Below the pieces are notes generated by a model. It was not told the DNA's origin. It did not search any database and saw only the letters and a list, made by a program, of their open reading frames with translations. A program made the position numbers and the translations under genes. From NCBI GenBank assembly GCA_011391175.1, contig JAABQZ010000001.1, forward strand, positions 5,915 through 69,914: a DNA stretch of 64,000 nt, read 5' to 3'. Below, piece by piece: positions 1-51,532 of the stretch; the first letter of the stretch is position 1; each line of letters begins with the position of its first letter. The DNA comes from Methylophilaceae bacterium. Its GTDB lineage: Bacteria > Pseudomonadota > Gammaproteobacteria > Burkholderiales > Methylophilaceae.

Positions 1-890
1 CTTGTGAATGCCACACATGGTAACTCTGCCATGATTCTCTTCGTTAAACCAGCCAATACTTTGCCCGGGCCGCATTCTGCTGCGTTTGTGATGCCTTGTG
101 TATGAATTGTCTGCACTGTTTCTACCCAGCGCACAGGTGAATACAATTGGCGCACCAATGCATCTTTAATTTTATCTGACTCGCTGTATGACGCTACATC
201 TGCATTATGAATCACAGGAATTTGTGGTGTGCTGATAGCCACTGTTTTTAAGTACGCTGCCAGATTTTCTGCTGCAGGCCTCATCAATGCGCAATGCGAA
301 GGCACGCTGACTGGTAGCGGTAAAGCGCGTTTTGCGCCCTTCGCTTTGGCAATTTCCATGCCTCGTTCCACCGCCGCTTTATTACCTGCAATTACTACTT
401 GGCCGGGTGAGTTCAAATTAACCGCTTCACAAACTTCATTTTGTGCCGCTTCTGCGCATACTGCACGCACAATATCGTCATCTAAGCCTAAGATGGCCGC
501 CATTGCGCCTACACCTTCTGGCACGGCACTTTGCATTACTTCCGCACGATACTTCACTAGCGGCAAGGCATCTGCAAAGCTCAAAGCATTCGCGGCCACT
601 AAAGCAGTATATTCACCCAGGCTGTGACCCGCATGGATATTGGCTTGCGGGCCGCCTGCTTGAATATAAGCACGATAAGTGGCAATGCCTGCTGTTAGCA
701 TCAGTGGTTGCGTATGTTGTGTTTGGTTCAACAGTTCATTTGGCTCTGTTGCCATCGCCCAAAAGTCAGTTTTTAAGATGTCAGACGCTTCAGCAAAAGT
801 TTGCTTAATAACGGGATTATCACCGAAACCAGCCATCATGCCGACTGACTGTGAGCCTTGGCCTGGAAAGAAAAATGCAAATTTACTCAT
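1..890 (-). CDS. fabD: Malonyl-CoA:ACP transacylase (3' end runs off the window)
   Basis: Not in the ORF track. Manual minus-strand translation from ATG at 890 gives MSKFAFFFPGQGSQSVGM...AGHSLGEY (GHSLG catalytic motif). Lies downstream of fabH. Confidence 0.96.
   Translation of the reverse strand, partial: MSKFAFFFPGQGSQSVGMMAGFGDNPVIKQTFAEASDILKTDFWAMATEPNELLNQTQHTQPLMLTAGIATYRAYIQAGGPQANIHAGHSLGEYTALVAANALSFADALPLVKYRAEVMQSAVPEGVGAMAAILGLDDDIVRAVCAEAAQNEVCEAVNLNSPGQVVIAGNKAAVERGMEIAKAKGAKRALPLPVSVPSHCALMRPAAENLAAYLKTVAISTPQIPVIHNADVASYSESDKIKDALVRQLYSPVRWVETVQTIHTQGITNAAECGPGKVLAGLTKRIMAELPCVAFT
621..655 (-). repeat. Intragenic copy of the dispersed 14-11-14 element (core AAGCCAATATCCATGCGG) inside fabD
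   Basis: Minus strand GGCCCGCAAGCC-AATATCCATGC-GGGTCACAGC. Positions 628-646 are identical over 19 nt to 51260-51278. Confidence 0.7.
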
Positions 891-905
891 ATTTTTAAAA
901 CCTAT

Positions 906-1859
906 TTAATACCTTAGCAGGGCGCTACCCCAAGTAAAACCGCCACCAAACGCTTCCATGAGGATGACGTCACCGCGTTTGATGCGGCCATCACGTACTG
1001 CAACGTCTAGCGCAAGCGGAATCGATGCGGCTGAAGTATTGCCATGTTTATCCACTGTGACCACTACTCTATCCATGCTCATGTCGAGTTTTTTGGCGGT
1101 GGCTTGCAAAATACGAATATTGGCTTGATGTGGCACCAACCAATCAATGTCACTTTTTTGCATGCCATTGGCAGTGAGTGTTTCATCTACGATTTGGTCT
1201 AGTGTATTCACCGCCATCTTAAATACCGCATTGCCTTCCATGGTTACTGTGTCTAGGCCAGACTCACTCCGCGGCACATGCAGCATATTTTCATAATTAC
1301 CATCGGCGTGTAAATGAGTGGAAATCACACCTTGTGATTCACTAGCTTGCAAAATGACGGCGCCAGCGCCGTCGCCCCACAAAATGCAGTTGCTTCTGTT
1401 GGTGTAATCTACAATGCGCGAAAATGTCTCAGCACCCAATACCAGTGCACATTTGGCAGTGCCTGTCTTGATGAAATTATCGGCCGTTGCCAAGGCGTAG
1501 ACAAAGCCGCTACACACCGCTTGTATATCGAATGCGGGGCAACCAGCAACCCCCAATTTGCGTTGCAATATGGTCGCAACGCTGGGGAAAACTTTATCAG
1601 GTGTCGTCGTCGCTACAATAATCAAATCAATATCGCTAACCGTTATACCTGCACTGATAATGGCATTTTTAGCGGCTTCAAACGCCAAATCGCTAGTAAA
1701 CTCACCTTCTGCTGCAAGGTGGCGTTCGCGTATGCCAGTGCGAGTAAAAATCCACTCATCGGTAGTATCTACCATGGTTTCTAAATCTTTATTAGTAAGG
1801 ATTTTTTCAGGCAAATAGCTGCCTGTACCCGTTATTTTTGAGTAAAGCTTGTTCGACAC
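906..1859 (-). CDS. fabH: Beta-ketoacyl-ACP synthase III
   Basis: AVCSGF catalytic Cys, [24 protein letters not shown] motifs. Confidence 0.97.
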
Positions 1860-2902
1860 TATACAACCTCTTCCGACACATTGGCCATGCTTGGCTGTAA
1901 GTGCTCAATTTCTAATTGCTGGGTAATGCGATTCAGTACACCGCTACGCGCCTCTTCAATCGCCACGTGAATAGCATGCAAAAAGGCGATAGGATCTGCC
2001 CCGCCGTGGCTTTTAACCACAATGCCGCGCAAGCCCAAAAAACTAGCGCCGTTGTATAGACGGGGGTCTAGACGCTTTTTAAACGCTTTAAGCACCGGCA
2101 TTGCGCCTAGCGCCATGATTTTGGTCAGCCAGCTACGCTTGAATTCTTGCGTTAAAAATTTGCCCATCATGTGTGCCAAACCTTCGGTGGTTTTTAGCGC
2201 TACATTGCCCACAAAACCGTCGCACACCACTAAATCCGTAGTACCTTTAAAAATATCATCACCTTCAACATTGCCGTAAAAATTGAGATGGCTAGCGCGT
2301 AGCAACTCAGCAGCCCGCTTCACTACTTCATTGCCTTTAATGTCCTCAGAGCCAATATTTAACAAGCCTACAGTGGGATTCGGCTTGTGCTCAACACAGC
2401 TCACTAGCATGGCGCCCATCACCGCAAATTGAAGCAAATGCTCTGCTGTGCAATCCGCATTTGCACCGAGATCTAGCATGTAAGTATTGCCTTTTTCAGA
2501 AGGCAATGCAGAGGCAATAGCAGGTCGATCAATGCCTGGTAAAGTTTTCAATACAAATCGTGCTGTTGCCATTAAAGCGCCCGTGTTACCGGCGCTCACA
2601 CAAGCATTCGCCTCACCAGATTTTACTAAGTTGATAGCCACGCGCATGCTGGAATCTTTTTTATTTTTAAGTGCGCTTTGTGGTGACTCATCCATCAACA
2701 CCACCTCAGTAGTGTGATGAATACGCAAATTAGGACTAGTATTGGCTTTGTGAGCTTTTAGCTCGGCTTGAATAGCATCCTCAAGACCAACCAGCACAAT
2801 ATTGAGTTGATTATCAGCTTTAAGCGCTGCGAGCGCAGCTGGAACAGTGACATGCGGGCCGTGATCCCCACCCATTGCGTCAATTGCGATTGTAATATCC
2901 AT
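1859..2902 (-). CDS. plsX: Phosphate acyltransferase PlsX
   Basis: [28 protein letters not shown] motifs; rpmF-plsX-fabH synteny. Confidence 0.97.
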
Positions 2903-3030
2903 CAGACTAATTAGATGTTTTTATGACGCAAATGTCAATGACACGCGTCAATGTGAAAATGCTTGCAGTTTGCAGAGATATGGGCATCAAAGTGTAGTTA
3001 TTCATGAGTGGCGTATATACTTAGACGTGC

Positions 3031-3053
3031 AAACGCCGCGCAGTGCGCGGCGT
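3031..3053 (-). terminator. Hairpin (terminator/attenuator) after rpmF
   Basis: ACGCCGCGC-AGT-GCGCGGCGT inverted repeat followed by a short T run on the minus strand. Confidence 0.55.
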
Positions 3054-3081
3054 AACAGTCAAGCACCAACAAGAGCGTTAA

Positions 3082-3261
3082 TTACTCGCCTTTTGTCGCA
3101 ATAACTTTGCGGCCACGGTAATAGCCGCTTGGGCTAATATGATGACGCAAATGTGTTTCGCCAGTCGTTGGCTCTACTGCCAAAGGCGGATTGACTAAAA
3201 AGTCGTGTGAGCGGTGCATACCGCGTTTGGAAGGTGACTTTTTGTTTTGTTGAACTGCCAT
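3082..3261 (-). CDS. rpmF: 50S ribosomal protein L32 (59 aa, below the ORF-track cutoff)
   Basis: Manual translation [59 protein letters not shown]; GGAG SD upstream. Confidence 0.97.
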
Positions 3262-3425
3262 GTGAATACTCCAAAAATTTTGCTAAAACACTGTTGCTTA
3301 TAAATATGCCGCTGAAAAAAATAGTACAACTAAAATTAAGCGCGCATTTTAATAGAATTGCCGACTAATGTAAATCAATAACTTAGCAATTATTATTAAA
3401 TACTTAAGTAATTATAAAGCCAACC

Positions 3426-3908
3426 TCACTTTATGAAACCTTTTAGCACCGCAAATGGGTTAGGATTATCGCCACTTTGGGTATTTAGCTTGCTGCAATC
3501 ATGTGCATGAATGGGGGCAATTGGCAACGCTAATAGCAACTCATCTTCTATTAATTCACTCACATCCATCTCATGGCTTGCTTCCAGCCAATCAATTTCG
3601 TCATTTTCTTCAGCCTCACTTATTTCTGTGCTACTAATTAAATAATCGAAGTTTAAATTCAAACTTATTAGCATTTCGTCTAAGCAGCGCTGGCAAGTAA
3701 CAGCTAAGTTGGCTTTTATATTTAAATGCAAGCTAGGCTGACGGAACTGCTTGCCAGTGCCCGACAATTGAAACTGAACTTGTGTATTTTCGTGGTTTGT
3801 CAGTATTTCCGCTAGGCGTGGCAACTGGGCTGTCACCAAACTATCACTTAGCTCTAGTTGGTTTTTTGCGAATTCTAAGTTGTTAATAATCAAAGATTTT
3901 TGCGTCAT
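3426..3908 (-). CDS. yceD: YceD/DUF177 family 23S rRNA accumulation protein
   Basis: CQRCL, LIEDELLLALP and NPFAVLK motifs; upstream of rpmF; ATG at 3908 preferred over TTG at 3923. Confidence 0.92.
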   Translation of the reverse strand: MTQKSLIINNLEFAKNQLELSDSLVTAQLPRLAEILTNHENTQVQFQLSGTGKQFRQPSLHLNIKANLAVTCQRCLDEMLISLNLNFDYLISSTEISEAEENDEIDWLEASHEMDVSELIEDELLLALPIAPIHAHDCSKLNTQSGDNPNPFAVLKGFIK

Positions 3909-4037
3909 TTTTAATAAATTCAAGTTTTTTTAAACTGCTTTTAGCATGCTACATATCCCTTACAGTGCGCTTGCGTGTTATACTCTAGCGGTTTTCTAGT
4001 TGTTATTTCAAGGCGTTGTAATTTTAAGGCTAAAGTC

Positions 4038-5456
4038 GTGTTCAAAAAAATTCTAGTGGCTAATCGGGGTGAAATTGCAGTGCGTATTGTACGCGCTTGC
4101 TCTGAAATGGGCATTAAATCTGTTGCGATTTATGCTGATGCCGACCGCCATGCGCTACACGTCAAAAAAGCGGATGAAGCCTACAATTTAGGCGCTGACC
4201 CAGTTGCTGGCTATCTAAATGCACATAATATTGTCAACGTCGCCGTAGCTGCAGGTTGCGACGCGCTACATCCAGGCTATGGTTTTCTATCAGAAAACCC
4301 TGAGCTGGCCGAAATCTGTGCACGTCGCGGCATCAAGTTCATTGGGCCTAGCGCATCGGTGATTCGCCAGATGGGCGATAAGATTGAAGCCCGTAAAGCC
4401 ATGACTAGCGCCGGTATTCCCTGCACACCTGGTAGCGACGGTAACTTGGCAGATTTAGATGAAGCCGTAGCGCTTGCTAATAAAATCGGCTACCCCGTGA
4501 TGCTTAAAGCCACTAACGGTGGCGGTGGGCGCGGTATCCGTCGCTGCGATTCAGAGAAAGAGTTATTAGGTAATTACGATCGCGTTATTTCTGAAGCCAG
4601 CAAAGCCTTTGGTAAACCTGAAGTGTTTTTAGAAAAATGTGTCGTCACGCCGCGCCATATTGAAGTGCAAGTGATGGCCGATAGTAAAGGGAATGTAATT
4701 CACCTGTTTGAGCGTGACTGCTCAATCCAGCGCCGCAATCAAAAACTGATTGAAATCGCACCCTCCCCGCAGTTGAGTCAAGCGCAACGTGATTACATTG
4801 GCGGTTTAGCTGTAAAGGCTGCGAAAGCCGTAGGTTACGAAAATGCGGGCACGGTCGAGTTTTTGCTTGATTCAAACAATACATTTTACTTTATGGAAAT
4901 GAATACACGCCTGCAGGTAGAGCATACCGTCACCGAGACCATTACTGGTGTGGATATTGTGCAAGAGCAAATTCGTATTGCCTATGGTTTGCCCTTGCAA
5001 TATAAGCAAAATGAAATTAGTTTTCGCGGTTTTGCTATGGAATACCGTATTAATGCGGAAGATCCGAAAAATGACTTTTTGCCCAGTTTTGGCAAAATTA
5101 CCCGCTATTACTCTCCCGGCGGCCCTGGTGTGCGCATGGATGCTGCCATTTACTCTGGTTACGTGATTCCGCCTTATTACGATTCGATGTGTGCCAAGCT
5201 AACGGTGTGGGCGCTGGATTGGGAAGGCGTGGTTGAGCGCGGCCGCCGTGCGCTGGGCGATATGGTGGTGTATGGCGTTAAAACGACCATCCCCTATTAT
5301 CAAGAAATTATGAAGCACCCTGATTTCAAGGCCGCCAACTTCAACACCAGCTTCGTAGAGAGTCATCCAGAGCTGACCAACTATGCAACAGAATTACCTC
5401 CTGAATTGATTGCGGCTGCGATTTCCGCAGCGATTGCAGCGCATGAGGGTATTTAG
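4038..5456 (+). CDS. pycA: Pyruvate carboxylase subunit A (biotin carboxylase)
   Basis: FKKILVANRGEIA, HPGYGFLSEN, ERDCSIQRR, EMNTRLQVEH; paired with the carboxyltransferase/biotinyl subunit; GTG start at 4038 inferred. Confidence 0.9.
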   Translation: MFKKILVANRGEIAVRIVRACSEMGIKSVAIYADADRHALHVKKADEAYNLGADPVAGYLNAHNIVNVAVAAGCDALHPGYGFLSENPELAEICARRGIKFIGPSASVIRQMGDKIEARKAMTSAGIPCTPGSDGNLADLDEAVALANKIGYPVMLKATNGGGGRGIRRCDSEKELLGNYDRVISEASKAFGKPEVFLEKCVVTPRHIEVQVMADSKGNVIHLFERDCSIQRRNQKLIEIAPSPQLSQAQRDYIGGLAVKAAKAVGYENAGTVEFLLDSNNTFYFMEMNTRLQVEHTVTETITGVDIVQEQIRIAYGLPLQYKQNEISFRGFAMEYRINAEDPKNDFLPSFGKITRYYSPGGPGVRMDAAIYSGYVIPPYYDSMCAKLTVWALDWEGVVERGRRALGDMVVYGVKTTIPYYQEIMKHPDFKAANFNTSFVESHPELTNYATELPPELIAAAISAAIAAHEGI

Positions 5457-5499
5457 CATGCTATTTCACATTTAGTAATTTTCATAAAGAAATAAAATT

Positions 5500-7353
5500 A
5501 TGAGCAAAATTCACATTACAGAACTGGTTTTACGCGACGGACATCAATCACTTATCGCCACGCGTATGCGCACCGAAGATATGTTGCCCATCTGCAAGCA
5601 GCTTGATGCTATTGGTTTCTGGTCAATAGAAGCTTGGGGTGGTGCTACCTTTGATGCTTGCGTTAGGTTTTTAAAAGAAGACCCATGGGAACGCTTAACT
5701 AAACTGCGCAAAGCGCTGCCTAACAGCCAAATTAATATGTTATTGCGTGGCCAGAACTTGCTAGGCTACCGCCATTATTCTGATGATGTAGTGCATGCGT
5801 TCGTGCAAAAATCTGCCGACAACGGTGTGGATGTGTTCCGCGTGTTTGATGCGCTAAACGATGTACGTAACTTGCGCGAAGCGATTAAGGCTGTTAAAAA
5901 AGTGAAAAAGCATGCCATTGGCACGCTTTCTTACACCACCAGCCCAGTGCACGATATCGATTACTTTGTGGCCATGGCTAAACAACTAGAAGACATTGGC
6001 GCAGATAGCATTGGCATTAAAGACATGGCAAGTTTGCTCACCCCTACTGCGGCAGGCGATTTAGTCAAAGCACTTAAATCTGCGGTTAGTTTGCCGATTC
6101 ATGTGCATAGCCATGCTACTTCTGGTTTTGCCAGCATTGCGCTGATGAAAGCAGTTGAAAACGGCGCGTCGATTATCGATACCTGCAATTCCTCCTTTGC
6201 CGAAGGTGCCAGCCACCCATCTACCGAAAGCATGGTCGCCGCTTTACAAGGTACCAAATACGACACTGGAATTGACTTGGCCAAGTTGCAAGAAATTACC
6301 GCCTATTTCCGCGAAGTGCGTAAAAAATATTGGCAGTATGAAAGCGAGTTTACTGGTGTGGATACTCGTGTACTGGTGAATCAAGTGCCTGGGGGCATGA
6401 TTTCGAACTTGTCGAATCAATTAAAAGACCAAGGCGCCTTACACCGCATGGATGAAGTGCTGCTAGAAATCCCACGCGTACGCGAAGATTTAGGCTACCC
6501 ACCTTTGGTCACGCCAACTTCGCAAATTGTGGGCTCGCAAGCGGTGTTGAATGTGATGACAGGCGCGCGCTATAAATCGGTAACCAATGAAGTTAAAAAT
6601 TACTTTTTAGGTCAATACGGCCAATCGCCAGCACCAGTGAACGCCAGCGTTAAAACTAAAGCCGTGGGTGATGCTGAGGTGATGACTTGTCGCCCAGCGG
6701 ATGTGTTAGCACCTGAAATGGCGAGATTACAAGCCGAATCTGATCGCATTGCGAAATCAGAGGAGGATGTTTTAACCTATGCCATGTTCCCCGATATTGG
6801 CCAAACTTTCTTGCAAGAGCGTAATGCGGGCAGCTTAAAAGTTGAGCCCCTACAAACCAAAGAAACAGGCAATACCAGCGCCGCACGTTTTGCGCCGAAT
6901 GAGTTCAACGTGACATTACATGGTGAAACTTTCCACATCAAACTCACTGGCAGCGGCCACGCCGGAGAAGAACAGCGTCCGTTCTACGTTTCAGTAGATG
7001 GTGTTGCCGAAGAAGTGATTGTAGAAACACTGGACGAAATTGAAGTTTCAGCGAACGGCGTCAGCACTGGCAATAAAAGCAGTGGCAAGAAAAAAACCAG
7101 TACGACATCCAGTGGTCGCCCTCGCCCACACCATGCGGGCTGTGTCACCACCGCCATGCCAGGTACTATTGTGGCAGTTAAAGTAAAAGTTGGCGATACA
7201 GTGAAAGCTGGCGATGGGGTGCTGGTGATTGAGGCAATGAAAATGGAAAACGAGATTCAAGCCTCTACCTCTGGCACTGTGGTGGCTGTGCATGTGGCTA
7301 AAGGCGATAACGTGACGCCAGATGAATCGTTACTGGAAGTGCAACCAGAATAG
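5500..7353 (+). CDS. pycB: Pyruvate carboxylase subunit B (carboxyltransferase plus biotin carrier; OadA-like)
   Basis: LRDGHQSL, WGGATFD, PGGM, VTPTSQ motifs; C-terminal EAMKM biotinylation site. Confidence 0.9.
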   Translation: MSKIHITELVLRDGHQSLIATRMRTEDMLPICKQLDAIGFWSIEAWGGATFDACVRFLKEDPWERLTKLRKALPNSQINMLLRGQNLLGYRHYSDDVVHAFVQKSADNGVDVFRVFDALNDVRNLREAIKAVKKVKKHAIGTLSYTTSPVHDIDYFVAMAKQLEDIGADSIGIKDMASLLTPTAAGDLVKALKSAVSLPIHVHSHATSGFASIALMKAVENGASIIDTCNSSFAEGASHPSTESMVAALQGTKYDTGIDLAKLQEITAYFREVRKKYWQYESEFTGVDTRVLVNQVPGGMISNLSNQLKDQGALHRMDEVLLEIPRVREDLGYPPLVTPTSQIVGSQAVLNVMTGARYKSVTNEVKNYFLGQYGQSPAPVNASVKTKAVGDAEVMTCRPADVLAPEMARLQAESDRIAKSEEDVLTYAMFPDIGQTFLQERNAGSLKVEPLQTKETGNTSAARFAPNEFNVTLHGETFHIKLTGSGHAGEEQRPFYVSVDGVAEEVIVETLDEIEVSANGVSTGNKSSGKKKTSTTSSGRPRPHHAGCVTTAMPGTIVAVKVKVGDTVKAGDGVLVIEAMKMENEIQASTSGTVVAVHVAKGDNVTPDESLLEVQPE

Positions 7354-9670: not shown

Positions 9671-9709
9671 ATGCCCTGTAAGCCAATACCCATGCGGCCT
9701 GCAGGGCAT
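9671..9709 (+). repeat. Dispersed 39-bp 14-11-14 quasi-palindrome, full copy
   Basis: ATGCCCTGTAAGCC-AATACCCATGC-GGCCTGCAGGGCAT. Confidence 0.85.
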
Positions 9710-25915: not shown

Positions 25916-25954
25916 CTAGCCTATAGGCCGCATGGATACTACCTCCCAAGACAT
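25916..25954 (-). repeat. Degenerate copy of the 14-11-14 element
   Basis: Plus strand CTAGCCTATAGGCC-GCATGGATACT-ACCTCCCAAGACAT; spacer and one arm match, other arm about 8/14. Confidence 0.55.
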
Positions 25955-28458: not shown

Positions 28459-28497
28459 ATGCCCTGTAGGCCTCATGAATATTGGCTTACAGGGCAT
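28459..28497 (-). repeat. Dispersed 39-bp 14-11-14 quasi-palindrome, full copy
   Basis: Minus strand ATGCCCTGTAAGCC-AATATTCATGA-GGCCTACAGGGCAT. Confidence 0.85.
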
Positions 28498-32047: not shown

Positions 32048-34639
32048 ATGTCAGCAGCCCTACCAGTCAGCCCAAATTCCCGCAATGAGCTGCTAGCACT
32101 ACGTAGCGATTTAAAAACACAGCAAGCTGCTATTGAAGCCAGCTTTTTGCTACATAAAAACCCAGCACGTTTATTAAAAAATCAAACTCAACTCATTGAT
32201 AAACTGCTTAAAACAGTATGGCTGCAAGCTAATATCCATGTGGGATGTGGCTTAATCGCAGTTGGTGGCTATGGCCGTGGCGAGTTGTTCCCTTATTCCG
32301 ATATCGACTTGCTCATTTTACTCCCTGAGCAATTTCCAGAAGGTGAAAACCTAAAAATTGAAGCACTGATTGGCTTGCTGTGGGATATTGGCTTAAATGT
32401 TGGCCACAGCGTGCGCACGCAGCATGAATGCTTGACCGAAGCGAGCAATGACGTGACGGTACAAACCAATCTGCTGGAAGCACGTTATTTAGCGGGTAGC
32501 AAAGCACAATATAATGCTTTTTTAAGTGCCGTTAATGGACAAATGCACCCTGCCGAGTTTTTTACCGCCAAATTTAAAGAGCAAGACATTCGTCACGCTA
32601 AGTTTAACGACACTGCCTATAATCTAGAGCCTAATATTAAAGAAAGTCCGGGTGGGCTGCGCGATTTACACATGATTTTATGGTTGGCACAAAGCCAAGG
32701 GCTAGGTAAAAGTTGGCTAGATCTTGCCAAAAATCAACTTATTTCAGGCCCAGAGTTGCGCCAAATTAAACGCCATCAGCGCAATTTACAAACATTACGT
32801 ATACGTCTGCATTACTTGGCTAAAAGGCGTGAAGATAGATTGCTATTTGATTTTCAAAATGAGCTAGCAGCCGATTTGGGGTTTGTTACTAACCCACGTA
32901 AGCGTGCTAGTGAACAGCTGATGCAAAGCTATTACAGAAGTGTAAAGTATATTAGTTTAATCAATGAGATACTTGTTAAAACTTTAGAGTCTACTTTAAC
33001 TAAAACTGCCGCCAATATCACACCTATTAGTGATAATTTTGAAGCGCATAACCAGTGGTTGCAAGCCAAAAATGCACGTATTTTGCAACAACAGCCTACG
33101 GCAGTTCTAGAATGTTTTTTACTGCTACAACAACACCCAGAATTAGAAGGCATGGGTGCCAATTTAATACGCCAATTGCAACGCGTTAAAAAGTTGGTTA
33201 ATCGCGAATTTAGAGAGTTAAATGATAATAAATCTTTATTTATCAATATATTATCGCAATCCAAAGGTGTAAACCACAGCTTGCGCCGTATGAATCGTTA
33301 TGGCATTTTAGGTCAATATATTCCTGCTTTTGGCAAAATTGTTGGTCAAATGCAGCACGACTTATTTCATGTATATACCGTAGACGAGCATATTTTAAAC
33401 GTACTCGCCAACCTGCGCCGCTTTGCCAAGCCAGAGTTGAAACACGAGTTTCCCCTGTGCAGTCAATTATTTTCAGCTTTCGAAAAGCCTTATTTGCTTT
33501 ACCTTGCAGCGTTATTTCACGATATCGCCAAAGGCCGTGGTGGTGATCATTCTACGTTAGGCACGCATGATGCAAAACGCTTTTGCAAACTACATGGCTT
33601 GCCCAGAGAAGACGCGCAATTAGTCGCTTGGCTGGTCGAGCAACACTTAAAAATGTCCAGCACCGCGCAAAAATCTGATCTATCTGACGCCAATGTAATT
33701 ACCCAATTTGCGCAGCTTGTTAAGACAGAAACACGGTTAAATGCCTTGTATCTACTGACTGTAGCTGATATTCGTGGCACCAGCCCTGCTGTGTGGAATG
33801 CCTGGAAAGCACGTCTGCTAGAAAATCTGTTTTACGCAACCAAGCGTGTTCTGAACGATGAAAGCTTTAACGCACAGCAAACTGCAGATATCAGGCAGCA
33901 AGAAGCGGCTGATAAACTGAATAAGTATGGCCTAAGTGCGCAATCTTATCGCTTGTTATGGGGCATGCTGGGTATCGCCTATTTCACACGTTATGAAAGT
34001 GACGAAATTGCTTGGCAAAGCCGCTTGCTTACGCCCCATGCACAAAGTGACAAGCCGATTGTACGTGCGCGCTTAAGCCCCAATGGTGATGGCATACAGG
34101 TCATGATTTACAGCAAAGACCAAGATGATTTATTTGCACGCATCTGTAACTTTTTTGACCGTATGGCATATAGCATCGTAGAAGCCAAAATTTACACCAC
34201 GCTACATGGCTACGCATTAAATAGTTTTAGTGTTTTAGATCAATCAGGTAAGTCAGTTAGCTACAGTGGTTTGTTAAAATTTATTGAAAACGAATTAACT
34301 GAAAAAATCATCTCACCTAGCATAGAAGCACCACTAGAAGGCCGAATTAGCAGGCAAGTAAAACATACGCTTTTTAGCACGCAAATTAACATTTATGTGG
34401 AGCAAAAAAATCTTCAACATACCATTCATCACACGATAGAGATTGTGACAGGCGACCGTCCTGGCCTGTTAGCAAAAGTAGCGTTTATATTTTTGCAGCT
34501 GGGGATAGATTTGCACAATGCCAAAATTAATACACTTGGCAACCGCGCCGAAGATAGTTTCTTGGTTTCTGGTAAACAAGGCGCAACACTATCTAATACG
34601 CAACTCGCCATATTGGAAGAAGAGTTGTTGCGTTTGTAA
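32048..34639 (+). CDS. glnD: PII uridylyltransferase
   Basis: AVGGYGRGELFPYSDIDL, KESPGGLRD, HD domain (YTVDEH, FHDIAKGR), two ACT domains. Confidence 0.97.
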   Translation: MSAALPVSPNSRNELLALRSDLKTQQAAIEASFLLHKNPARLLKNQTQLIDKLLKTVWLQANIHVGCGLIAVGGYGRGELFPYSDIDLLILLPEQFPEGENLKIEALIGLLWDIGLNVGHSVRTQHECLTEASNDVTVQTNLLEARYLAGSKAQYNAFLSAVNGQMHPAEFFTAKFKEQDIRHAKFNDTAYNLEPNIKESPGGLRDLHMILWLAQSQGLGKSWLDLAKNQLISGPELRQIKRHQRNLQTLRIRLHYLAKRREDRLLFDFQNELAADLGFVTNPRKRASEQLMQSYYRSVKYISLINEILVKTLESTLTKTAANITPISDNFEAHNQWLQAKNARILQQQPTAVLECFLLLQQHPELEGMGANLIRQLQRVKKLVNREFRELNDNKSLFINILSQSKGVNHSLRRMNRYGILGQYIPAFGKIVGQMQHDLFHVYTVDEHILNVLANLRRFAKPELKHEFPLCSQLFSAFEKPYLLYLAALFHDIAKGRGGDHSTLGTHDAKRFCKLHGLPREDAQLVAWLVEQHLKMSSTAQKSDLSDANVITQFAQLVKTETRLNALYLLTVADIRGTSPAVWNAWKARLLENLFYATKRVLNDESFNAQQTADIRQQEAADKLNKYGLSAQSYRLLWGMLGIAYFTRYESDEIAWQSRLLTPHAQSDKPIVRARLSPNGDGIQVMIYSKDQDDLFARICNFFDRMAYSIVEAKIYTTLHGYALNSFSVLDQSGKSVSYSGLLKFIENELTEKIISPSIEAPLEGRISRQVKHTLFSTQINIYVEQKNLQHTIHHTIEIVTGDRPGLLAKVAFIFLQLGIDLHNAKINTLGNRAEDSFLVSGKQGATLSNTQLAILEEELLRL
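32218..32254 (+). repeat. Intragenic copy of the 14-11-14 element in glnD (encodes LQANIHVG)
   Basis: ATGGCTGCAAGCT-AATATCCATGT-GGGATGTGGCTTA. Confidence 0.55.
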
Positions 34640-34664: not shown

Positions 34665-34703
34665 ACGCCCCGCAAGCCTCACGAGTATTGGCTTACAGAG
34701 ATA
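34665..34703 (-). repeat. Dispersed 39-bp 14-11-14 quasi-palindrome, near-full copy
   Basis: Minus strand TATCTCTGTAAGCC-AATACTCGTGA-GGCTTGCGGGGCGT. Confidence 0.78.
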
Positions 34704-35448: not shown

Positions 35449-35538
35449 TGGCGGAAGAGGTGAGATTCGAACTCACGGTGGGCTCGCACCCACGACAGTT
35501 TTCAAGACTGTAGCATTAAACCGCTCTGCCACTCTTCC
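35449..35538 (-). tRNA. tRNA-Ser(TGA)
   Basis: GGAAGAGTGGCAGAGCGGTTTAATGCTACAGTCT-TGA-AAACTGT...GTTCGAATC...TCTTCCGCCA; long variable arm; encoded CCA; TATAAT plus GCGCGC discriminator at 35560-35571. Confidence 0.97.
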
Positions 35539-38862: not shown

Positions 38863-40191
38863 ATGGCTAAACAAGTGATTATTATTGGAGCTGGAATAGC
38901 AGGCCTGGCAGCCGCATCCACATTGGCTTCCAGAGGCGTTAAAGTGATATTGCTAGAAGCCGCCGGGCAATTAGGTGGTCGCGCGCGTAGCGTCGCTATT
39001 GAATATAATAGCCAAGTCGTTCAGCTAGACAACGGCCAGCATATTATGCTGGGCGCTTATACAGAAACGCTTAAACTGCTTAAGCAAGTGGGGATTAATG
39101 CGCAAGATGCATTTATGCGCATGCCGTTAAGCCTAGAGCTGCAAAATTTAGCACAGCGTGATGGCAATAAAACTGTATTTAAACTGAATATACCTAGTTA
39201 TTTACCTGCACCCATAAATCAGCTATTTGGATTCTTAGACTGCCAGGGCCTGAGTTGGCGTGAACGTATAGCCGCTATTCAGTTTATGTTGCGCTTAAAG
39301 AACAGCCAGTATCAGCTTACTACTGACAGCCCTCTGGCTGATTTTTTACAGCAAAACCAACAGTCTAGCCAGGTGATTAGGCTGTTATGGGAGCCGCTAT
39401 GCCTAGCTGCGCTTAACACACCGATTAACTTGGCCAGTAGCAAAGTATTTTTAAATGTGCTAAAAGATACGTTTAACAGTAAGCTGAACAGCGACTTTTT
39501 GCTACCTAGGCAGGATTTATCACAACTATTTTCACAACCGATTGAGAGTTATCTCAAAAAGCATGGCGCAAAAATTCAGCTGAATCAGCGTGTTAAAAGC
39601 ATCAAAACTGATAAAAATGGCTACCTTGTTTACACCAAAGATGCACAATTTAAAGCAAGTCATGTCATCGTTGCTATTTCGCCAGTTCGGCTGCGGAACG
39701 TGATTACTGAGCTACCTAAACTGGAATTTGCTGCACAGCAAACTGATCGTTATGATTATCAGCCCATCTATACGATTTATTTGCAGTATGAACGCGACAC
39801 CACGCTGTCAAAACCTATGCTGGGCATGGTTGGCGGAGTCAGTCAGTGGGTATTTGATCGTGGTATATTATGCGGTCAAAATGGGCTAATGGCAGTCATT
39901 ATTAGCGCAGAAGGCAAACATCAGCAGTACACACAGGACACGCTGGCATTGAGGGTGGCGCAAGAGCTACGCGATGCATTTCCGCAACTGATTAAACCAC
40001 TCTGGCACAAAGTGATAGCTGAAAAGCGTGCTACTTTTTCCTGTGACGTAAACTTGCCACGTCCCGCTAACTTAACATCTTATACAGGGCTATATTTAGC
40101 TGGCGATTATACCTATGCGGACTACCCCGCTACCATAGAAGGTGCAGTGCGTAGCGGGCTTGCTTGTGCCGAATTAGTGTGCAATTCTTAA
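38863..40191 (+). CDS. hpnE: Hydroxysqualene dehydroxylase HpnE
   Basis: GAGIAG FAD motif, LGGRARS, LDNGQH, EKRATF, LAGDY...YPATIEGAVRSG. Confidence 0.92.
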   Translation: MAKQVIIIGAGIAGLAAASTLASRGVKVILLEAAGQLGGRARSVAIEYNSQVVQLDNGQHIMLGAYTETLKLLKQVGINAQDAFMRMPLSLELQNLAQRDGNKTVFKLNIPSYLPAPINQLFGFLDCQGLSWRERIAAIQFMLRLKNSQYQLTTDSPLADFLQQNQQSSQVIRLLWEPLCLAALNTPINLASSKVFLNVLKDTFNSKLNSDFLLPRQDLSQLFSQPIESYLKKHGAKIQLNQRVKSIKTDKNGYLVYTKDAQFKASHVIVAISPVRLRNVITELPKLEFAAQQTDRYDYQPIYTIYLQYERDTTLSKPMLGMVGGVSQWVFDRGILCGQNGLMAVIISAEGKHQQYTQDTLALRVAQELRDAFPQLIKPLWHKVIAEKRATFSCDVNLPRPANLTSYTGLYLAGDYTYADYPATIEGAVRSGLACAELVCNS

Positions 40192-45526: not shown

Positions 45527-45593
45527 ATTTTCTCCTTGTGGTTAAAGCCACCCACTATGCAACCAGAATTAACTGGAATGGTGTGGCAAGGTT
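45527..45593 (-). ncRNA. S6:S18 autoregulatory leader RNA
   Basis: Minus strand CCUUG-GCCAC...GUGGC-UUUAA-CCA-CAAGG-AG: stem sequestering the SD with an internal-loop CCR motif. Confidence 0.7.
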
Positions 45594-45806
45594 TGAAAGA
45601 GTCGCGATTATAGACAAAAAGCATTGATTAATCAAACACTTTTAAAGCCTTTTGCGTGGTTAATTAGTGAATAAGCACAAATAAATTAAAGCGAATTAGT
45701 ACACAAGCACTTAAAAAAGAAAGCCTAACTGGCTAATAACTTACTTGCAAAGTTGCTAACGCACTTATAAAGTGACTCCTTAACGAATTTAAGGCTAAAT
45801 GCTCAC

Positions 45807-46469
45807 ATGCAAAAAACCATCTTATTTTTCAAGCAATTTCCATTTGCTATGCTGCTGTGTGTGCAGTTATTGAGCGTGCTGTTTTATGGATTTATGACAG
45901 ACTCTAAAACTAGCCACCTCATTTTCAATTGCTTAGGTTTAATCGTGCCGATTTTAGCGGTGTGGACAGTTTATCGCTCGCCCGCCACCAATTGGATTGG
46001 TTTTGTATTAGTTTCAGCCTCTATCTGCACATCGCTGCTAGCCTTATTCGGTGGGCAAGCGCATCTTTTAGTTTGGGCGCATGCCTTTGAGAGTTTGCTA
46101 TATTTTTACGCAGCGATTAGCTTGGTCATGTATATGTTTAAAGACGATATTGTGACTTTGGATGAGCTTTACGCCGCAGGCGCCACGTTTACGCTACTGG
46201 TGTGGGGTTTTGCGCTGGTTTACTCGGTGTGTCAGCAAATTTACCCAAACAGCATCATAGGCGGTTCACCTGCTACGCAATTACGTAGTTGGATAGAGTT
46301 GTTATTTTTCAGCTTTAGCGTGCAATCTGGTACTGGGCTGAGCGACTTATTGCCTGTAAGCCCGCAATCGCGGGCCCTCGCCTCCATTCAAATGTTTAGC
46401 GGCGTAATGTATATAACGGTTGTGATTTCACACTTGGTCGGGCTTGCCGCCAGAAATAAAGCTAAATAG
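45807..46469 (+). CDS. Ion_trans_2 (potassium-channel-like) membrane protein
   Basis: About 6 TMs; C-terminal pore-like segment LFFSFSVQSGTGLSDLLP...R. Confidence 0.78.
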   Translation: MQKTILFFKQFPFAMLLCVQLLSVLFYGFMTDSKTSHLIFNCLGLIVPILAVWTVYRSPATNWIGFVLVSASICTSLLALFGGQAHLLVWAHAFESLLYFYAAISLVMYMFKDDIVTLDELYAAGATFTLLVWGFALVYSVCQQIYPNSIIGGSPATQLRSWIELLFFSFSVQSGTGLSDLLPVSPQSRALASIQMFSGVMYITVVISHLVGLAARNKAK

Positions 46470-46498
46470 TTAAATCTGCTTTAAATTATCCTAAAAGA

Positions 46499-46537
46499 AT
46501 GCCCTGCAAGCCAATATCCATAAGGCTTACGAGGCAT
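46499..46537 (+). repeat. Dispersed 39-bp 14-11-14 quasi-palindrome, full copy
   Basis: ATGCCCTGCAAGCC-AATATCCATAA-GGCTTACGAGGCAT. Confidence 0.85.
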
Positions 46538-46548
46538 AATTTTTTGAA

Positions 46549-48342
46549 TTAGTTAGTTTGTTTTGGCAGCGCGAATACCAACACCGCGTCACCCTGTTTG
46601 TAACCAAAAATAGAGTTACCACCACTAGCCACCGCAATATATTGAGTGCCATCTATACTGTAAGTAATCGGCGGTGCATTAACACCAAATTCCGATTTGG
46701 CTTGCCATAACAGCTCACCAGTTTGGCTGTTGTATGCGTTAAAGTTGCCTTCACCCTCACCCATAAATATTAAACTGCCTGCTGTGGCCAGCACGCCTCC
46801 AACTAAAGGTTGCGCAGTTTTGTTTTGCCAAACAATCTTGCCAGTGGCTAAATCAACGCTTGATAACAAACCCCATCGCGGATCTTGCGTGGGCTCACTG
46901 GCAGCATAACGAATGGCCGCTTTGCCGTTACTAGAGGGTGTTTCGTGCAGCGTATATTTAATTGGGGCATGTATGCCAGCAATAAATACGCGCTGGTTTT
47001 TCTCATCCAAACTCACTGGCGACCAGTTTGAACCGCCTAAAATGCCTGGATAGACAGTGGTGCCTTCAAAGGTGGCTTTTTTAAACATATTTTGCTGCGG
47101 TACAAACGCGTCCGATTTTTTAAGCAATTTGCCAGTAGCGCGGTCATGAATATAAAACCAACCAGTTTTGCTGGCCTGCCCCACTGCGGCAATGTTTTTG
47201 CCATTGAAATGGTAGTTAAAAAGTACAGGCGGGCTGGCTAAGTCATAGCCCCATAAATCGTGCGGCACTTGCTGATAATGCCATTTGCGTACGCCAGTGT
47301 TCACATCCAACGCAACCAGTGAAACTGTATATAAGTTATCCCCAGGCCTTGAAATGTCGTTCATTTGTGGGCTTGGGTTGCCTGTACCAAAAAACAAAGT
47401 GTCACTTTTAACATCAATTGCTGGCGTGCTCCAAGCAGAGCCGCCACCAAAGCGTGCTGAGTCAGGGTATTTAGCCAAATCAGCCTTTTCTTGCGCCACA
47501 TCGCGATTAAATTGCACACCATCCTCGGTGGATTCAGTGAAATTACCTTCCCAGCCATTGGCAGGAATTGTGTCAAACTGCCAGATACGCTTGCCGTCAC
47601 TGACATCATAAGCAGCAAGAAATCCTGGTCTACCAAAGCGCCCTGATACACCAATAACTGCACCCAAAGGTGCGTCTGCTGTCGGATTGTCGATATGTAA
47701 ACCGTAGCCTACCCCAGTAATGCCAACGATGACTTTGCCTTTATATACTACTGGCGCCATGGCGATGCCGATTCCCGTGCCACCTGTCACTTTACGGGCA
47801 CTATTGGGGTCGTCTTTATTCAGTGCATCTTGGCCTTCGGTAGTAATCGCGCTTTCTACCACGTCTATATCCCACTCTTTTGCACCCGTTGTTGCGTTAA
47901 GTGCGATTAAGCGCGCATCCACTGTACCAATAAACACTTTACCATTTGCAACAGCCACGCCCCTATTTGCTGGGCCGCAGCACATTTTCCAATCGGCGCG
48001 CTTATCATGGTTGTAGCGCCATAACTCTTTACCCGTTTTGGCATCAAGTGCCACCACATGGTTAAAAGGTAAAGATAAATACATCACACCATTTTGCACG
48101 ATTGGCGTTGCCTGAAAACTGGCACTAACACCACTGTTATATGCCCAAGCTTGTGCCAAGTCTTTGACGTTTTGTGTGTTAATTTGCTTTACAGGCGAAA
48201 AGCGCTGACTAGCGTAATCACGCCCAAAACTAGGCCAATCATTAGCCTCTACACTTGAATTATTGGGCTTGTAGTTTGCACCCCCACATGCAACGAGCGC
48301 AAGAAAACCAATCACTAATACTACTTTCAAAGACTTATACAT
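46549..48342 (-). CDS. PQQ-dependent dehydrogenase-fold (beta-propeller) lipoprotein with atypical active site
   Basis: Lipobox LVAC; W..FGRDY.SQRFSP..QIN, QATP, vicinal CC.NRG, GTGNPSP, PHDLWGYD, GG.NW, W-motif repeats. Confidence 0.88.
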   Translation of the reverse strand: MYKSLKVVLVIGFLALVACGGANYKPNNSSVEANDWPSFGRDYASQRFSPVKQINTQNVKDLAQAWAYNSGVSASFQATPIVQNGVMYLSLPFNHVVALDAKTGKELWRYNHDKRADWKMCCGPANRGVAVANGKVFIGTVDARLIALNATTGAKEWDIDVVESAITTEGQDALNKDDPNSARKVTGGTGIGIAMAPVVYKGKVIVGITGVGYGLHIDNPTADAPLGAVIGVSGRFGRPGFLAAYDVSDGKRIWQFDTIPANGWEGNFTESTEDGVQFNRDVAQEKADLAKYPDSARFGGGSAWSTPAIDVKSDTLFFGTGNPSPQMNDISRPGDNLYTVSLVALDVNTGVRKWHYQQVPHDLWGYDLASPPVLFNYHFNGKNIAAVGQASKTGWFYIHDRATGKLLKKSDAFVPQQNMFKKATFEGTTVYPGILGGSNWSPVSLDEKNQRVFIAGIHAPIKYTLHETPSSNGKAAIRYAASEPTQDPRWGLLSSVDLATGKIVWQNKTAQPLVGGVLATAGSLIFMGEGEGNFNAYNSQTGELLWQAKSEFGVNAPPITYSIDGTQYIAVASGGNSIFGYKQGDAVLVFALPKQTN

Positions 48343-48439
48343 AATTTAACTTAATTAAAATGAGTAATTACACAAAGTATACCGATTTGTATAGCGCTTG
48401 CATATATCATCGCTAATATCTGATTATTTTTATATTGAT

Positions 48440-48465
48440 GCATCTATTAATTAAAATTTATCGTA
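48440..48465 (+). promoter_or_regulatory. Putative autoregulatory ECF promoter
   Basis: GCATCT-N16-CGTA upstream of the sigma gene; resembles the CATC/CGTA-type promoters of SigK/RpoE-like ECFs. Confidence 0.5.
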
Positions 48466-48603
48466 TCTATTCTTACAAACTAACGCAGGAACCAAACTTA
48501 CAACCAAAGATTGAACTTGTAATTCCAACATTTTTTTACTCGTCACACCTATCTGAAATAAAAATTCAGGTAGTATCCAATATTAGTTAGTGGGTTAATT
48601 GTT

Positions 48604-49170
48604 ATGAAGCAAACAAAATCATCTGAGGAGCTGTTTCGCTTGCTAGCCTTAAGCGGTCAAGGTGACCGTGCGGCTTTCCAAGCGCTATACGAGGCAACTT
48701 CTGCCAAACTGTTTGGCCTGTCACTACGCATCTTAAGTCGACGCGATTTAGCAGAGGAAGCTTTGCAAGATGCATTTATTAATATTTGGCACCACGCGCA
48801 AAATTACCGCCCAGAAAAAGCAGCAGTGATGACTTGGATGACTACCATAGTCCGTAACAAGTGCTTTGACTTACTGCGCGCTATGCCTAAGGAATCGCAG
48901 TTGTTAGAGGAACAAAGCATGGACGATTGGGCTTCAGATGACTTAGGCCCTTTGGAAAAAGTCACAGAGCAAAGTCAATCCAAAGCACTGCTAAATTGCA
49001 TGAGCACACTTGCACCGCTGCAACGCCAAGCAATTGCACTAAGCTACTTTAAAGGCATGGTACACGAACAATTAGCAACACATATGGTGCAACCTCTAGG
49101 CACAGTTAAAACATGGATCAGGCGTGGTTTGCAATCTCTTAAAAGCTGTTTGCAAGGAGTATCCTCATGA
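48604..49170 (+). CDS. ECF sigma factor, SigK-like
   Basis: GDRAAFQALY, AEEALQD.F..IW, W...I.RN, PLGTVKTWIRRG; Cys132 and Cys182. Confidence 0.92.
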   Translation: MKQTKSSEELFRLLALSGQGDRAAFQALYEATSAKLFGLSLRILSRRDLAEEALQDAFINIWHHAQNYRPEKAAVMTWMTTIVRNKCFDLLRAMPKESQLLEEQSMDDWASDDLGPLEKVTEQSQSKALLNCMSTLAPLQRQAIALSYFKGMVHEQLATHMVQPLGTVKTWIRRGLQSLKSCLQGVSS

Positions 49171-49874
49171 GATACGACAATCAACTATTAGCCAATATGC
49201 TTGCTACGGAATATATTTTAGGCATGCTAAAAGGTGCTGCGAGAAGACGTTTTGAGCAATTATTAAGGCAACGTGCTGATTTAGCGCAAACCTTTCACTG
49301 GTGGGAGTCACATCTGCACTTGCTAGCGGACACTGTGCCAGCCACCCAGCCATCTAACAAGGTATGGCAAAACATCGAAAATCGCTTATTTAACGCACCG
49401 AGGACTAACTCTCGGGCTAACAATAGTAGCTGGTGGAAAGGTTTGGCATTTTTATCTACGGCCATGGCAGTTTCGCTTGCAACTTTCTTGGCAATTCAAT
49501 CTCCTAAGCGATTAGAAGATATTGCCCCTACTGCTGTGGCTTTATTAACAACAGAAAAAGCGGAGGCTGGTTGGCTTTTAGATGAAACCAAACATTCACC
49601 AACAGATATTGAGATTAAAGTACGTGCACTGACTAGCCTGCAAATCAAGCCCGATAACGCGTTTGAATTATGGCTATTACCCGCAGACAAATCTAAACCG
49701 ATTTCTCTAGGCTTATTGCCACAACAAGGGACTAGCGTATTTAAAGTGCCAGAGGAATTAATCGCGCAACTGGCAACTGGGTTGTTAGCTGTTAGCTTAG
49801 AACCCGTGGGCGGATCACCTACTGGTCAACCAACGGGGGCGGTGCTGTATCAAGGCAGGATGACTAAGACTTAA
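49167..49874 (+). CDS. Anti-sigma factor, RskA family
   Basis: EY.LG.L, P...VW..I, one TM, ELWLL....P.SLG, AVSLEP.GGSP.GQPTG; 4-nt overlap with the sigma gene. Confidence 0.92.
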   Translation: MRYDNQLLANMLATEYILGMLKGAARRRFEQLLRQRADLAQTFHWWESHLHLLADTVPATQPSNKVWQNIENRLFNAPRTNSRANNSSWWKGLAFLSTAMAVSLATFLAIQSPKRLEDIAPTAVALLTTEKAEAGWLLDETKHSPTDIEIKVRALTSLQIKPDNAFELWLLPADKSKPISLGLLPQQGTSVFKVPEELIAQLATGLLAVSLEPVGGSPTGQPTGAVLYQGRMTKT

Positions 49875-49933
49875 GATTTGTATTTGAAGCTTAGTTAATT
49901 TTTTAATTTTTATCGTTATTTAGAAAGTAGTAA

Positions 49934-50965
49934 ATGGGTTTAGCCATAAAATTAGCAGAATCAGGTAGCTTGCCCGACTCTATTGTGCGGCAAGGCATTC
50001 GGCAGTTAGTGAAACAACGCTTGGTAGAAATTTCAGCAAACAATTGTGAAATCGGCATGGCGCACATGACACAATTTATTGCAGCCATGAATAATTCGGC
50101 TATTGCCCCGCTGCCTGAACTTGCCAATTCACAACATTACGAAGTACCTGCCGATTTTTTCCATTACTGTTTAGGTGTTAATCGCAAATACAGCAGCTGT
50201 TTTTGGATGCCCGATACGCAAACCTTAGATGAAGCTGAAGTATTGGCGTTGGCGCAAACCTGTGACCATGCCGATTTACAAGACGGCCAAGCGATTTTAG
50301 AGCTAGGCTGTGGCTGGGGCTCACTTTCACTTTGGATGGCTGCAAAATATCCAAAAGCCAATATCACTGGCGTTTCAAATTCAAACTCACAACGTGAATA
50401 TATTATGAATACAGCTAAGTCGCGCGGCATCACTAATCTGAACATTATCACGGCAGACATGAATACATTTGAAGCGCCATCGACCTATGATCGTGTCGTG
50501 TCAGTTGAAATGTTTGAGCATATGCGAAATTACCAAGTGCTGTATGGCAAGGTCGCCAGCTGGCTAAATGCAGGTGGGAAATTCTTCAAACATATTTTTG
50601 TGCATCGCAATACGCCATATGTGTTTGATGTAAAAGCAGATGACGACTGGATGAGCCAATTCTTTTTTAGTGGCGGCATGATGCCCAGTGACGATTTGCC
50701 ATTGCATTTTCAGGATGATTTAAAGCTAATCAAGCGTTGGCGTTGGGATGGCACGCATTATGAAAAAACGGCCAATGCCTGGCTGGAAAACATGGATAAA
50801 AACGCCAAAGCCATTACCCCTATTTTTGCGGCGACTTATGGTGAAAATGATGTAGAAATGTGGCGTAATCGCTGGCGCATGTTTTACATGGCGTGTGCCG
50901 AATTGTTTGGTTATAACAATGGCCAAGAATGGTGGGTAACCCACTATTTATTCGAGAAAAGATAA
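49934..50965 (+). CDS. SAM methyltransferase, cyclopropane-synthase-like (short type)
   Basis: AN.QHYEVP..FF, KYSSC, LELGCGWGS, VSVEMFEHMRNY. Confidence 0.88.
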   Translation: MGLAIKLAESGSLPDSIVRQGIRQLVKQRLVEISANNCEIGMAHMTQFIAAMNNSAIAPLPELANSQHYEVPADFFHYCLGVNRKYSSCFWMPDTQTLDEAEVLALAQTCDHADLQDGQAILELGCGWGSLSLWMAAKYPKANITGVSNSNSQREYIMNTAKSRGITNLNIITADMNTFEAPSTYDRVVSVEMFEHMRNYQVLYGKVASWLNAGGKFFKHIFVHRNTPYVFDVKADDDWMSQFFFSGGMMPSDDLPLHFQDDLKLIKRWRWDGTHYEKTANAWLENMDKNAKAITPIFAATYGENDVEMWRNRWRMFYMACAELFGYNNGQEWWVTHYLFEKR

Positions 50966-50992
50966 TAGTTAGGTAAAGCTAATTAACACAAT

Positions 50993-51532
50993 ATGCCTAA
51001 ATCACAAATTATTTCCAACTTTATCTTGTTTCAAATTGGCTGGTTTGCCTGTGTCATTGGTGCGTCCAAGCAGTCCCCTTGGCTGGGTGTCATCGTGGTT
51101 GCTGCCATTGTGGTTTGGCATCTATCGCAATCCAAACAAGCTAAACCAGAACTAATCTTATTAGCGCTGGCATTAGTTATCGGTGGCATCTACGATCAAC
51201 TCATGCTAAGTAGCGGCTTAATCAGCTATCAGGCACATGGCTGGCTGGCCAGTTTAGTGCCCGCATGGATATTGGCTTTATGGGCAGTCTTTGTCACCGT
51301 ATTAAATGTAAGTTTACGCTGGATGAAAGATATTAAGTCGCATGGCAAGTGGCTGGTTGCAATCCTGTTTGGCGCCTTTGGTGGACCGCTGGCTTATATG
51401 GGTGCTGAGAAACTTGGCGCAGTGTCACTCAATAACTTACCTGCAAGTTATATTGCGCTTGCTGTTGGCTGGGCAATACTCACACCATTATTGTTGGTGC
51501 TATCTGAAAAATTTGATGGGTTTAAAGTCTAA
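50993..51532 (+). CDS. DUF2878 membrane protein
   Basis: NFILFQIGWFACV, P.WILALW..F, GGPLAY.G. Confidence 0.82.
   Translation: MPKSQIISNFILFQIGWFACVIGASKQSPWLGVIVVAAIVVWHLSQSKQAKPELILLALALVIGGIYDQLMLSSGLISYQAHGWLASLVPAWILALWAVFVTVLNVSLRWMKDIKSHGKWLVAILFGAFGGPLAYMGAEKLGAVSLNNLPASYIALAVGWAILTPLLLVLSEKFDGFKV
51249..51287 (-). repeat. Intragenic copy of the 14-11-14 element (encodes VPAWILAL)
   Basis: Minus strand CTGCCCATAAAGCC-AATATCCATGC-GGGCACTAAACTGG; 19-nt identity with the fabD copy. Confidence 0.6.

Follow-up and report, generated by a model that had tools for sequence, protein, structure and literature searches.

The element in the window and across the genome

The window analyzed here is the whole of a 64-kb stretch of DNA from a Methylophilaceae bacterium (positions 5915 to 69914 of contig C28 of G000, a 1.76-Mb Methylotenera genome that is 83.5% complete), in which copies of a 39-base element with an asymmetric 11-nt core are dispersed both between and inside genes. 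The closest relatives of the glnD gene in the window are labelled Methylotenera or Methylophilaceae. A sequence-only reading of this DNA had reported about eight copies; a weight-matrix scan of the window recovered all of them at the places, on the strands, and in the genes named (fabD, glnD, and a DUF2878 gene) and added three, for a total of 11. The matrix was seeded with four window copies and trained on G000 itself, so its scores are relative; genes were called with a codon model of our own that missed a few, so that some sites counted as intergenic are genic (for example, the one at 54081).

Full intergenic copies lie in a tandem spacer (9671 to 9709, plus strand, 56.6 bits), 3' of a TonB-dependent receptor gene (28459 to 28497, minus strand, 53.5 bits), and between convergent genes (46499 to 46537, plus strand, 52.5 bits). 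Other intergenic copies are found upstream of rpsB (25916 to 25954, minus strand, 33.5 bits) and directly past the glnD stop codon (34665 to 34703, minus strand, 36.1 bits). The intragenic copy in fabD (617 to 655, minus strand, 37.4 bits) encodes GPQANIHAGHS, adjoining the conserved GHSLG motif, and the fabD ortholog of G022, a relative poor in sites, has no gap at this position. A weak copy in glnD (32217 to 32255, plus strand, 10.9 bits) lies in a region of equal length in all 32 orthologs shown, some of which hold partial states of the element, with no indels. The copy in the DUF2878 gene (51249 to 51287, minus strand, 21.0 bits) is read from the opposite strand; positions 628 to 646 and 51260 to 51278 match exactly over 19 nt, as had been noticed before, and are read as ANIHAG in the former gene and PAWIL in the latter. 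The three added copies are in hpnE (38900 to 38938, minus strand, 29.4 bits; a copy is also present in the related locus L015), in a fatty acid desaturase gene (54081 to 54119, plus strand, 32.3 bits), and, more weakly, in the 5' part of a TPR/glycosyltransferase open reading frame (ORF) (59839 to 59877, plus strand, 15.2 bits). A tRNA was the only match in an Rfam search of the window, with none to the element. A tRNA gene occupies positions 35452 to 35538; its two ends, where contigs from related organisms part from one another, resemble an integration hot spot.

Symmetric A-rich and T-rich tracts, 23 to 26 bp on each side of the center, extend the 39-base word to about 53 bp. Mean information per position is highest in the core (1.22 bits), followed by the inner arms (1.13 and 1.11) and the outer arms (0.96 and 0.69), in agreement with the earlier view that the core and then the inner arms are the best-conserved parts. 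For almost every pair, covariation between the arms is what shuffling predicts; the exceptions are pairs 4/36 (z = 3.8) and 6/34 (z = 3.7) of the intergenic copies, and the genic ones have next to no covariation. Two orthologous spacers of G000 and its relative G088 align in their arms and flanks but carry the core in opposite directions. Given this inversion and the weak covariation, the element is a double-stranded DNA site that is indifferent to orientation. Because its arms are imperfect, a general count of dyads in the genome has no 11-nt peak. On contig C74 of G000, near position 873, the counterpart of a site in another relative, G053, is a copy whose core region is split by an additional 50 or so bases.

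With the converged matrix, which stayed close to the earlier consensus, G000 contains 210 sites of at least 22 bits (175 of at least 30 bits and 262 of at least 14 bits), a density of about 0.12 per kb, or roughly one copy per 8 kb. Coding DNA holds 108 matches of at least 22 bits compared with a mean of 5.3 (maximum, 9) in 10 synonymous-codon shuffles, a strong enrichment over a codon-preserving null. Copies occupy 45 of 110 convergent spacers, 42 of 649 tandem spacers, and 5 of 185 divergent spacers, and in tandem spacers the two orientations are balanced (20:20 among sites of at least 30 bits). Mapping of 207 of the 210 sites onto the complete genome of G022, which assumes rough synteny, yielded 105 leading- and 102 lagging-strand sites and a regional chi-square p of 0.10; neither clustering relative to ori and ter nor orientation bias is significant. 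Spacing is more even than random, with a coefficient of variation of 0.77 versus 0.96 to 0.97 in uniform and class-preserving nulls (p = 0.001) and 9 pairs less than 1.5 kb apart versus 29 in the class-preserving null. Synteny breaks show no excess of sites, and their density is about 4-fold lower in accessory genes (7 sites, compared with 103 in other genes; 2.1 versus 8.6 per 100 kb). A T-rich tail follows 45 of 100 intergenic copies, and a terminator scan is near its null (26 versus 19.7).

Copies inside genes and in related genomes

About half of the sites (110) are genic, and 65 of these are read in one frame, which gives DALQANIHAA-like peptides; a few weak matches, such as that in secD, are merely conserved peptides. 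At the 84 genic sites with an ortholog in G022, amino acid identity is 36% within the site versus 72% over the whole gene and 73% in random windows. The net length stays within 2 amino acids of the ortholog at 54 of these 84 sites, and therefore most genic copies replaced existing codons (about 13) in place. Some may be insertions or lie within variable linkers, since 8 of the 84 sites show a net gain of 10 to 20 amino acids and gaps occur at 38 of the 84, compared with 15% elsewhere. Relative to G088, the third positions of core codons are kept at 66 of 77 places (0.73 expected; p = 0.01), and first and second positions at 0.84 versus 0.96.

The distribution of the element among relatives is patchy. 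Among 151 Methylophilaceae genomes, 8 from four genus codes are rich in pattern hits (45 to 192), and the rest have 0 to 11, with 0 or 1 for the reversed control; 300 genomes across the class have 0 to 2 hits each. Within the rich group, 20 of the 34 sites found in 180 kb of G088 could be mapped to G000, where 18 carry a site, and 16 of the 25 found in 400 kb of G053 could be mapped, where 11 carry one; the stretches compared were partly chosen around known hits. The same G088 and G053 sites are kept in G022 at only 1 of 15 and 1 of 18 places. On the evidence of these orthologous positions, the sites are to be regarded as old and maintained across relatives. The site-poor genome G022 has 6 sites of at least 22 bits, several of them adjoining variable loci, which suggests that they were imported from site-rich kin or that sites decayed elsewhere. 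Its best copy (L088:7958) lies directly upstream of a umuD/umuC-like pair, and other strong copies border lipopolysaccharide and type I secretion loci. In G088, an SMC-like ATPase gene and two unannotated neighbors in a Wadjet-like layout (L334:83-5527) adjoin element copies at 5505 and 6963, beside which there is also a PIN-type toxin-antitoxin-like pair.

No gene tracks the rich genomes among HU/IHF, periplasmic ligase, comEC, H-NS, ScpA, ComP-family pilin, GIY-YIG, and Cro-like helix-turn-helix genes. In the combined set of rich and poor genomes, H-NS is present in 1 of 34; the Cro-like helix-turn-helix protein common to G000 and G053 is present in 7 of 34; and comEC (31 of 34) and ComP-family pilin (25 of 26), scored for presence only, occur in rich and poor genomes alike. 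Small GIY-YIG genes were not found in four rich genomes and are present in poor ones. Gene content lists against G022 and a by-eye reading of N termini, covering the incomplete G000, 400 kb of G053, and 180 kb of G088, produced no convincing candidate among the genes listed. Contig C11 of G000 carries a cluster recognized by eye as RuBisCO/phosphoribulokinase/CbbX-like, together with nitrate assimilation genes, that is missing in G022.

The core in phages, attachment sites, and plasmids

The exact 21-nt core occurs in at least 80 viral contigs, compared with none for the reversed pattern. Of 47 dereplicated viral loci, 5 adjoin a tyrosine integrase gene, 13 a primase/helicase gene, and 2 a terminase gene (the scans covered 59 and 30 of the 83 ORFs flanking them). 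Outside the search pattern, the viral flanks agree with the chromosomal consensus at positions 32 to 34 (25, 26, and 29 of 45; p = 1e-5 to 1e-9) and more weakly at positions 4 to 6 and 36, but at no other positions. Few viral contigs hold the chromosomal variant of the core (1 and 3 hits), and an iteron test on the viral flanks gave a weak signal (4 of 47 versus 7 of 1,880). The range claimed here is Proteobacteria only, the hosts of low-GC viral contigs being unassignable; pattern matches are also listed in Corynebacterium and Staphylococcus phages.

The contexts are varied. In one phage family (L096, L105, L107, L132, L143, L155, and L157), 58 bp separate the core from the integrase gene and about 670 bp separate it from one whose sequence reads as reverse transcriptase-like, of the diversity-generating retroelement type. 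At L087:7955, in G033, the core overlaps the 3' end of an apparent tRNA gene that adjoins an integrase remnant. Two large viral contigs (L112 and L113) have a symmetric double IHF-like sequence about 20 bp past the core, lytic ST32-like phages carry the core in a long noncoding gap past the RNA polymerase gene (L340, phage ST32, 1501 to 1529), and K64-1-like Klebsiella jumbo phages (H182 to H189) carry it twice.

The position of the core is most regular in a family of tRNA-Pro integrases 58 to 100% identical to the query, for which 30 loci were fetched and 22 attachment (att) regions were recognized. In 18 of the 22, the center of the core is exactly at -34 from the center of the anticodon loop, with an arm-like repeat on one side of it and the crossover region on the other. 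On the other arm, at +45 or +46, 19 of the 22 have a match (at most two mismatches) to the IHF consensus. A comparably fixed placement is seen near primase-helicase genes: in all 18 close relatives, short repeats (iteron arrays) are flanked by two direct copies of the core, which lie 64 to 70 and 215 to 224 nt behind the gene, and a single reversed copy is found in 8 of 9 distant ones. These counts cover the 27 of 58 loci that reach the 3' end of the gene, of which 26 fit the position pattern; arm sites and origins were assigned from layout.

The core is also present in 498 plasmid records, which among the 40 listed belong mostly to a 4-kb Escherichia coli MOBQ family. In one record of this cryptic plasmid, it lies between the iteron region/origin and mobC. 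It was likewise found in 144 of 5,426 E. coli genomes, in ST32-like phages, and in satellite-like E. coli elements. A comparison of a 61-base copy from the window with plasmids returned nothing meaningful. In the prototype plasmid described in PMC6856555, the region upstream of rep contains iterons, DnaA boxes, and an AT-rich stretch, and IHF is not mentioned there. In lambda-type att regions, a bending protein occupies the position that separates the arm-type from the core sites (PMC4880445). By analogy, the slots held by the core in phages and plasmids would be positions for DNA-bending host proteins.

A predicted bending site, its rivals, and known systems

The explanation that we favor, with a confidence that falls a little short of even, is an orientation-independent site of about 39 bp (53 bp with the A/T tracts) that is predicted to be bound, and likely bent, by a conserved host architectural protein. 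We infer that the reader is a host protein that bends DNA because unrelated mobile enzymes use one motif in one kind of slot. The likeliest candidate is the IHF/HU family, with a noncanonical core, although even this assignment is less probable than not; the size, symmetry, and A/T tracts would fit the geometry of a wrapped IHF/HU-type footprint. HU acts as a facilitator and IHF is confined to Proteobacteria, according to 10.1101/2023.11.06.565760. In mobile elements, the site would be a hinge that folds the intasome or the origin, and in the rich Methylophilaceae this hinge would govern the local topology or folding of DNA, favoring convergent gene ends and tolerant protein segments. As the reason for amplification, selection for an evenly spaced folding lattice is preferred, again with slightly less than an even chance of being correct. 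A broader proposal is more tentative still, namely, that Proteobacteria have an unrecognized sequence-specific bending site, serving phages, plasmids, and islands as a hinge where they integrate (att sites), replicate (origins), or are packaged, that some Methylophilaceae made into a chromosome-wide lattice of one site per 8 kb, overwriting 13 codons in more than 100 proteins.

Several observations weigh against a bending protein of this kind. The canonical IHF consensus is found in none of the 210 sites, and the core slot of the tRNA-Pro att family was never seen filled by a canonical IHF site. A phage excisionase is another possible reader of the position between arm and core. More than half of the viral loci (27 of 47) have no assigned context, and most outer-arm positions are unconserved in viral copies. 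HU/IHF copy number is equal in rich and poor genomes, and the DNA-binding arm is unchanged among the HU, IhfA, and IhfB sequences compared (IhfB in three genomes only); therefore, the reader alone cannot explain the patchy amplification. Synonymous-site conservation of the genic copies, a check named in the sequence-only reading, is modest relative to G088 and absent relative to G053 (63 of 134 third positions versus 0.48 expected). Finally, the genomic signature equally fits the uptake sequence drive described in PMC2817400.

The broader claim of the sequence-only reading, that the element is a DNA-level site for a protein rather than a terminator or an ordinary hairpin of the repetitive extragenic palindromic (REP) class, is supported. 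The weak covariation, the strong intragenic enrichment, the modest third-position conservation, and the lack in G000 of a REP-associated tyrosine transposase (RAYT), a REP tag, or target duplications speak for it, and the statement that the element does not match matS or KOPS held when tested. Its two candidate classes fail: the replichore and regional counts do not support a matS/parS-like regional organizer, and the inverted core runs counter to a recombinase-type site with a directional spacer. Nor was the suggested co-distributed recombinase or RAYT gene found in G000, where Y1 transposases have no match and the only tyrosine recombinase scores best as XerD-like, with no adjacent site.

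The most serious rival, possible but clearly less probable than not, is that the chromosomal copies are signals for DNA uptake or postuptake recombination that accumulated by molecular drive, as do the uptake signal sequences (USS) of Pasteurellaceae and the DNA uptake sequences (DUS) of Neisseriaceae; it is compatible with a bending-protein reader. The predominance of length-neutral substitution matches the DUS/USS signature as given in PMC2817400. The frame bias, even spacing, and absence of strand bias point the same way, as do the depletion in accessory genes, the use of convergent spacers, and the presence of comEC and a ComP-family pilin. However, DUS/USS occur at 0.8 to 0.9 per kb and are short words without palindromic structure (PMC2817400), whereas the element is present at about 0.12 per kb and is a long, mostly palindromic site. 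Furthermore, comEC, ComP-like pilin, and periplasmic ligase fail to separate rich from poor genomes, and uptake leaves the fixed single copies at phage att sites and origins and on E. coli plasmids unexplained.

It is improbable that the site recruits a replication or restart factor (a helicase/primase loader, PriA-type or weak DnaA-type) and provides backup loading points. The 13 viral loci at primase/helicase genes and the plasmid copy near an iteron origin are in line with such a role, and part of the core resembles the DnaA box consensus, but a full DnaA box is found in none of the 210 sites. Leading and lagging strands are used equally, both orientations occur at phage origins, there is little hairpin covariation, and a role at att sites is not evident.

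Slightly less probable again, and largely refuted, is a selfish hairpin repeat, like REP sequences or miniature inverted-repeat transposable elements or like the Ssn/SRM repeats, that spread by insertion and doubles as a bidirectional terminator. Its patchiness among kin, its preference for gene 3' ends and convergent spacers, the T-rich tails of 45% of intergenic copies, the slight outer-arm covariation at two pairs of these copies, and the gaps and length gains at some genic sites are what such a repeat would show. Conversely, the search of the 83.5%-complete G000 found no match to a Y1 (RAYT) transposase, a GTRG-type tag is near 13 of 210 sites compared with 22% of random places, target duplications are at or below the null, and the SRM pattern is absent from all 210 sites. 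No part is better conserved than the loop, codons are replaced rather than added in most genic copies, and the positions hold across genera; the small GIY-YIG genes expected of Ssn, not found in the four rich genomes, occur in poor ones, and none is flanked by the element. A secondary terminator role for intergenic copies is possible. A tyrosine recombinase crossover site is very unlikely: inverted arms around an asymmetric core and proximity to phage integrase genes recall one, but the element is 34 bp off the crossover in att regions, its 11-bp spacer exceeds the 7-bp overlap of lambda (PMC4880445) and is freely inverted, synteny breaks are not enriched, and the sole tyrosine recombinase found in G000 scores best as XerD-like and has no site beside its gene.

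The mobile-element link and the core inversions are new here, and no description of the element was found in the literature searched, figures, supplements, and most subscription papers being outside its reach. A genome-wide repeat that rewrites proteins is linked with a motif that many mobile elements carry at their functional junctions, two subjects unconnected in that literature. E. coli offers a host in which to look for the reader, since phages and a small plasmid of this species carry the core; identifying it would reveal a new architectural protein or else a second code by which IHF/HU recognizes DNA. Close relatives with 200 versus 6 sites form a natural experiment on whether sequence-encoded sites organize the nucleoid and on whether drive overrides protein constraint beyond the two known uptake systems. 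If the bending-site proposal is true, the lattice would either be a nucleoid scaffold encoded in sequence or constitute a third independent kind of uptake signal, one derived from the site of a bending protein.

Among known systems, matS/MatP, parS/ParB, and KOPS/FtsK are dispersed protein-binding DNA words that also occur inside genes; the element differs in sequence (matS and KOPS tested) and in its lack of ori/ter clustering and replichore polarity. REP sequences carry a GTAG/CGTC-type tag at the stem foot, and RIB/BIME-1 is an IHF-binding class of REP sequences and bacterial interspersed mosaic elements (BIMEs). With REP/BIME and RAYT the element shares hundreds of imperfect palindromes at gene 3' ends and patchiness among kin, whereas it has no tag, RAYT, or tandem mosaics, its loop is conserved, and half of its copies are in frame by substitution. 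The NTS/SRM repeats that accompany the Ssn nucleases are likewise hairpin-like, number in the hundreds, and may be tied to transformation, but loop identity is inessential there (PMC11893778), and the loop is the most conserved part here; the 210 sites contain no SRM match, and the element has no flanked or co-distributed small GIY-YIG gene.

USS and DUS, as described in PMC2817400, share with the element substitution origin, frame bias, even spacing, lack of strand bias, scarcity in accessory genes, and abundance at convergent gene ends. The element is about 7-fold sparser and 3 to 4 times longer and has palindromic arms within a single site, and mobile elements carry single copies of its core in hosts that have none on their chromosomes. 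IHF recognizes an 11-bp core between two kinks, and the offset of the H2 site is near -33. We know of no genome-wide codon-overwriting lattice for IHF, and the element differs from IHF sites in lacking the canonical consensus, in being near-palindromic, and in occurring in either orientation. The likeness is in the length of about 35 to 39 bp, in the pairing with an IHF consensus match on the other arm, and, for the IHF sites of lambda att (H1, H2, and H') and of origins, in the slot itself, between arm-type and core sites (PMC4880445).

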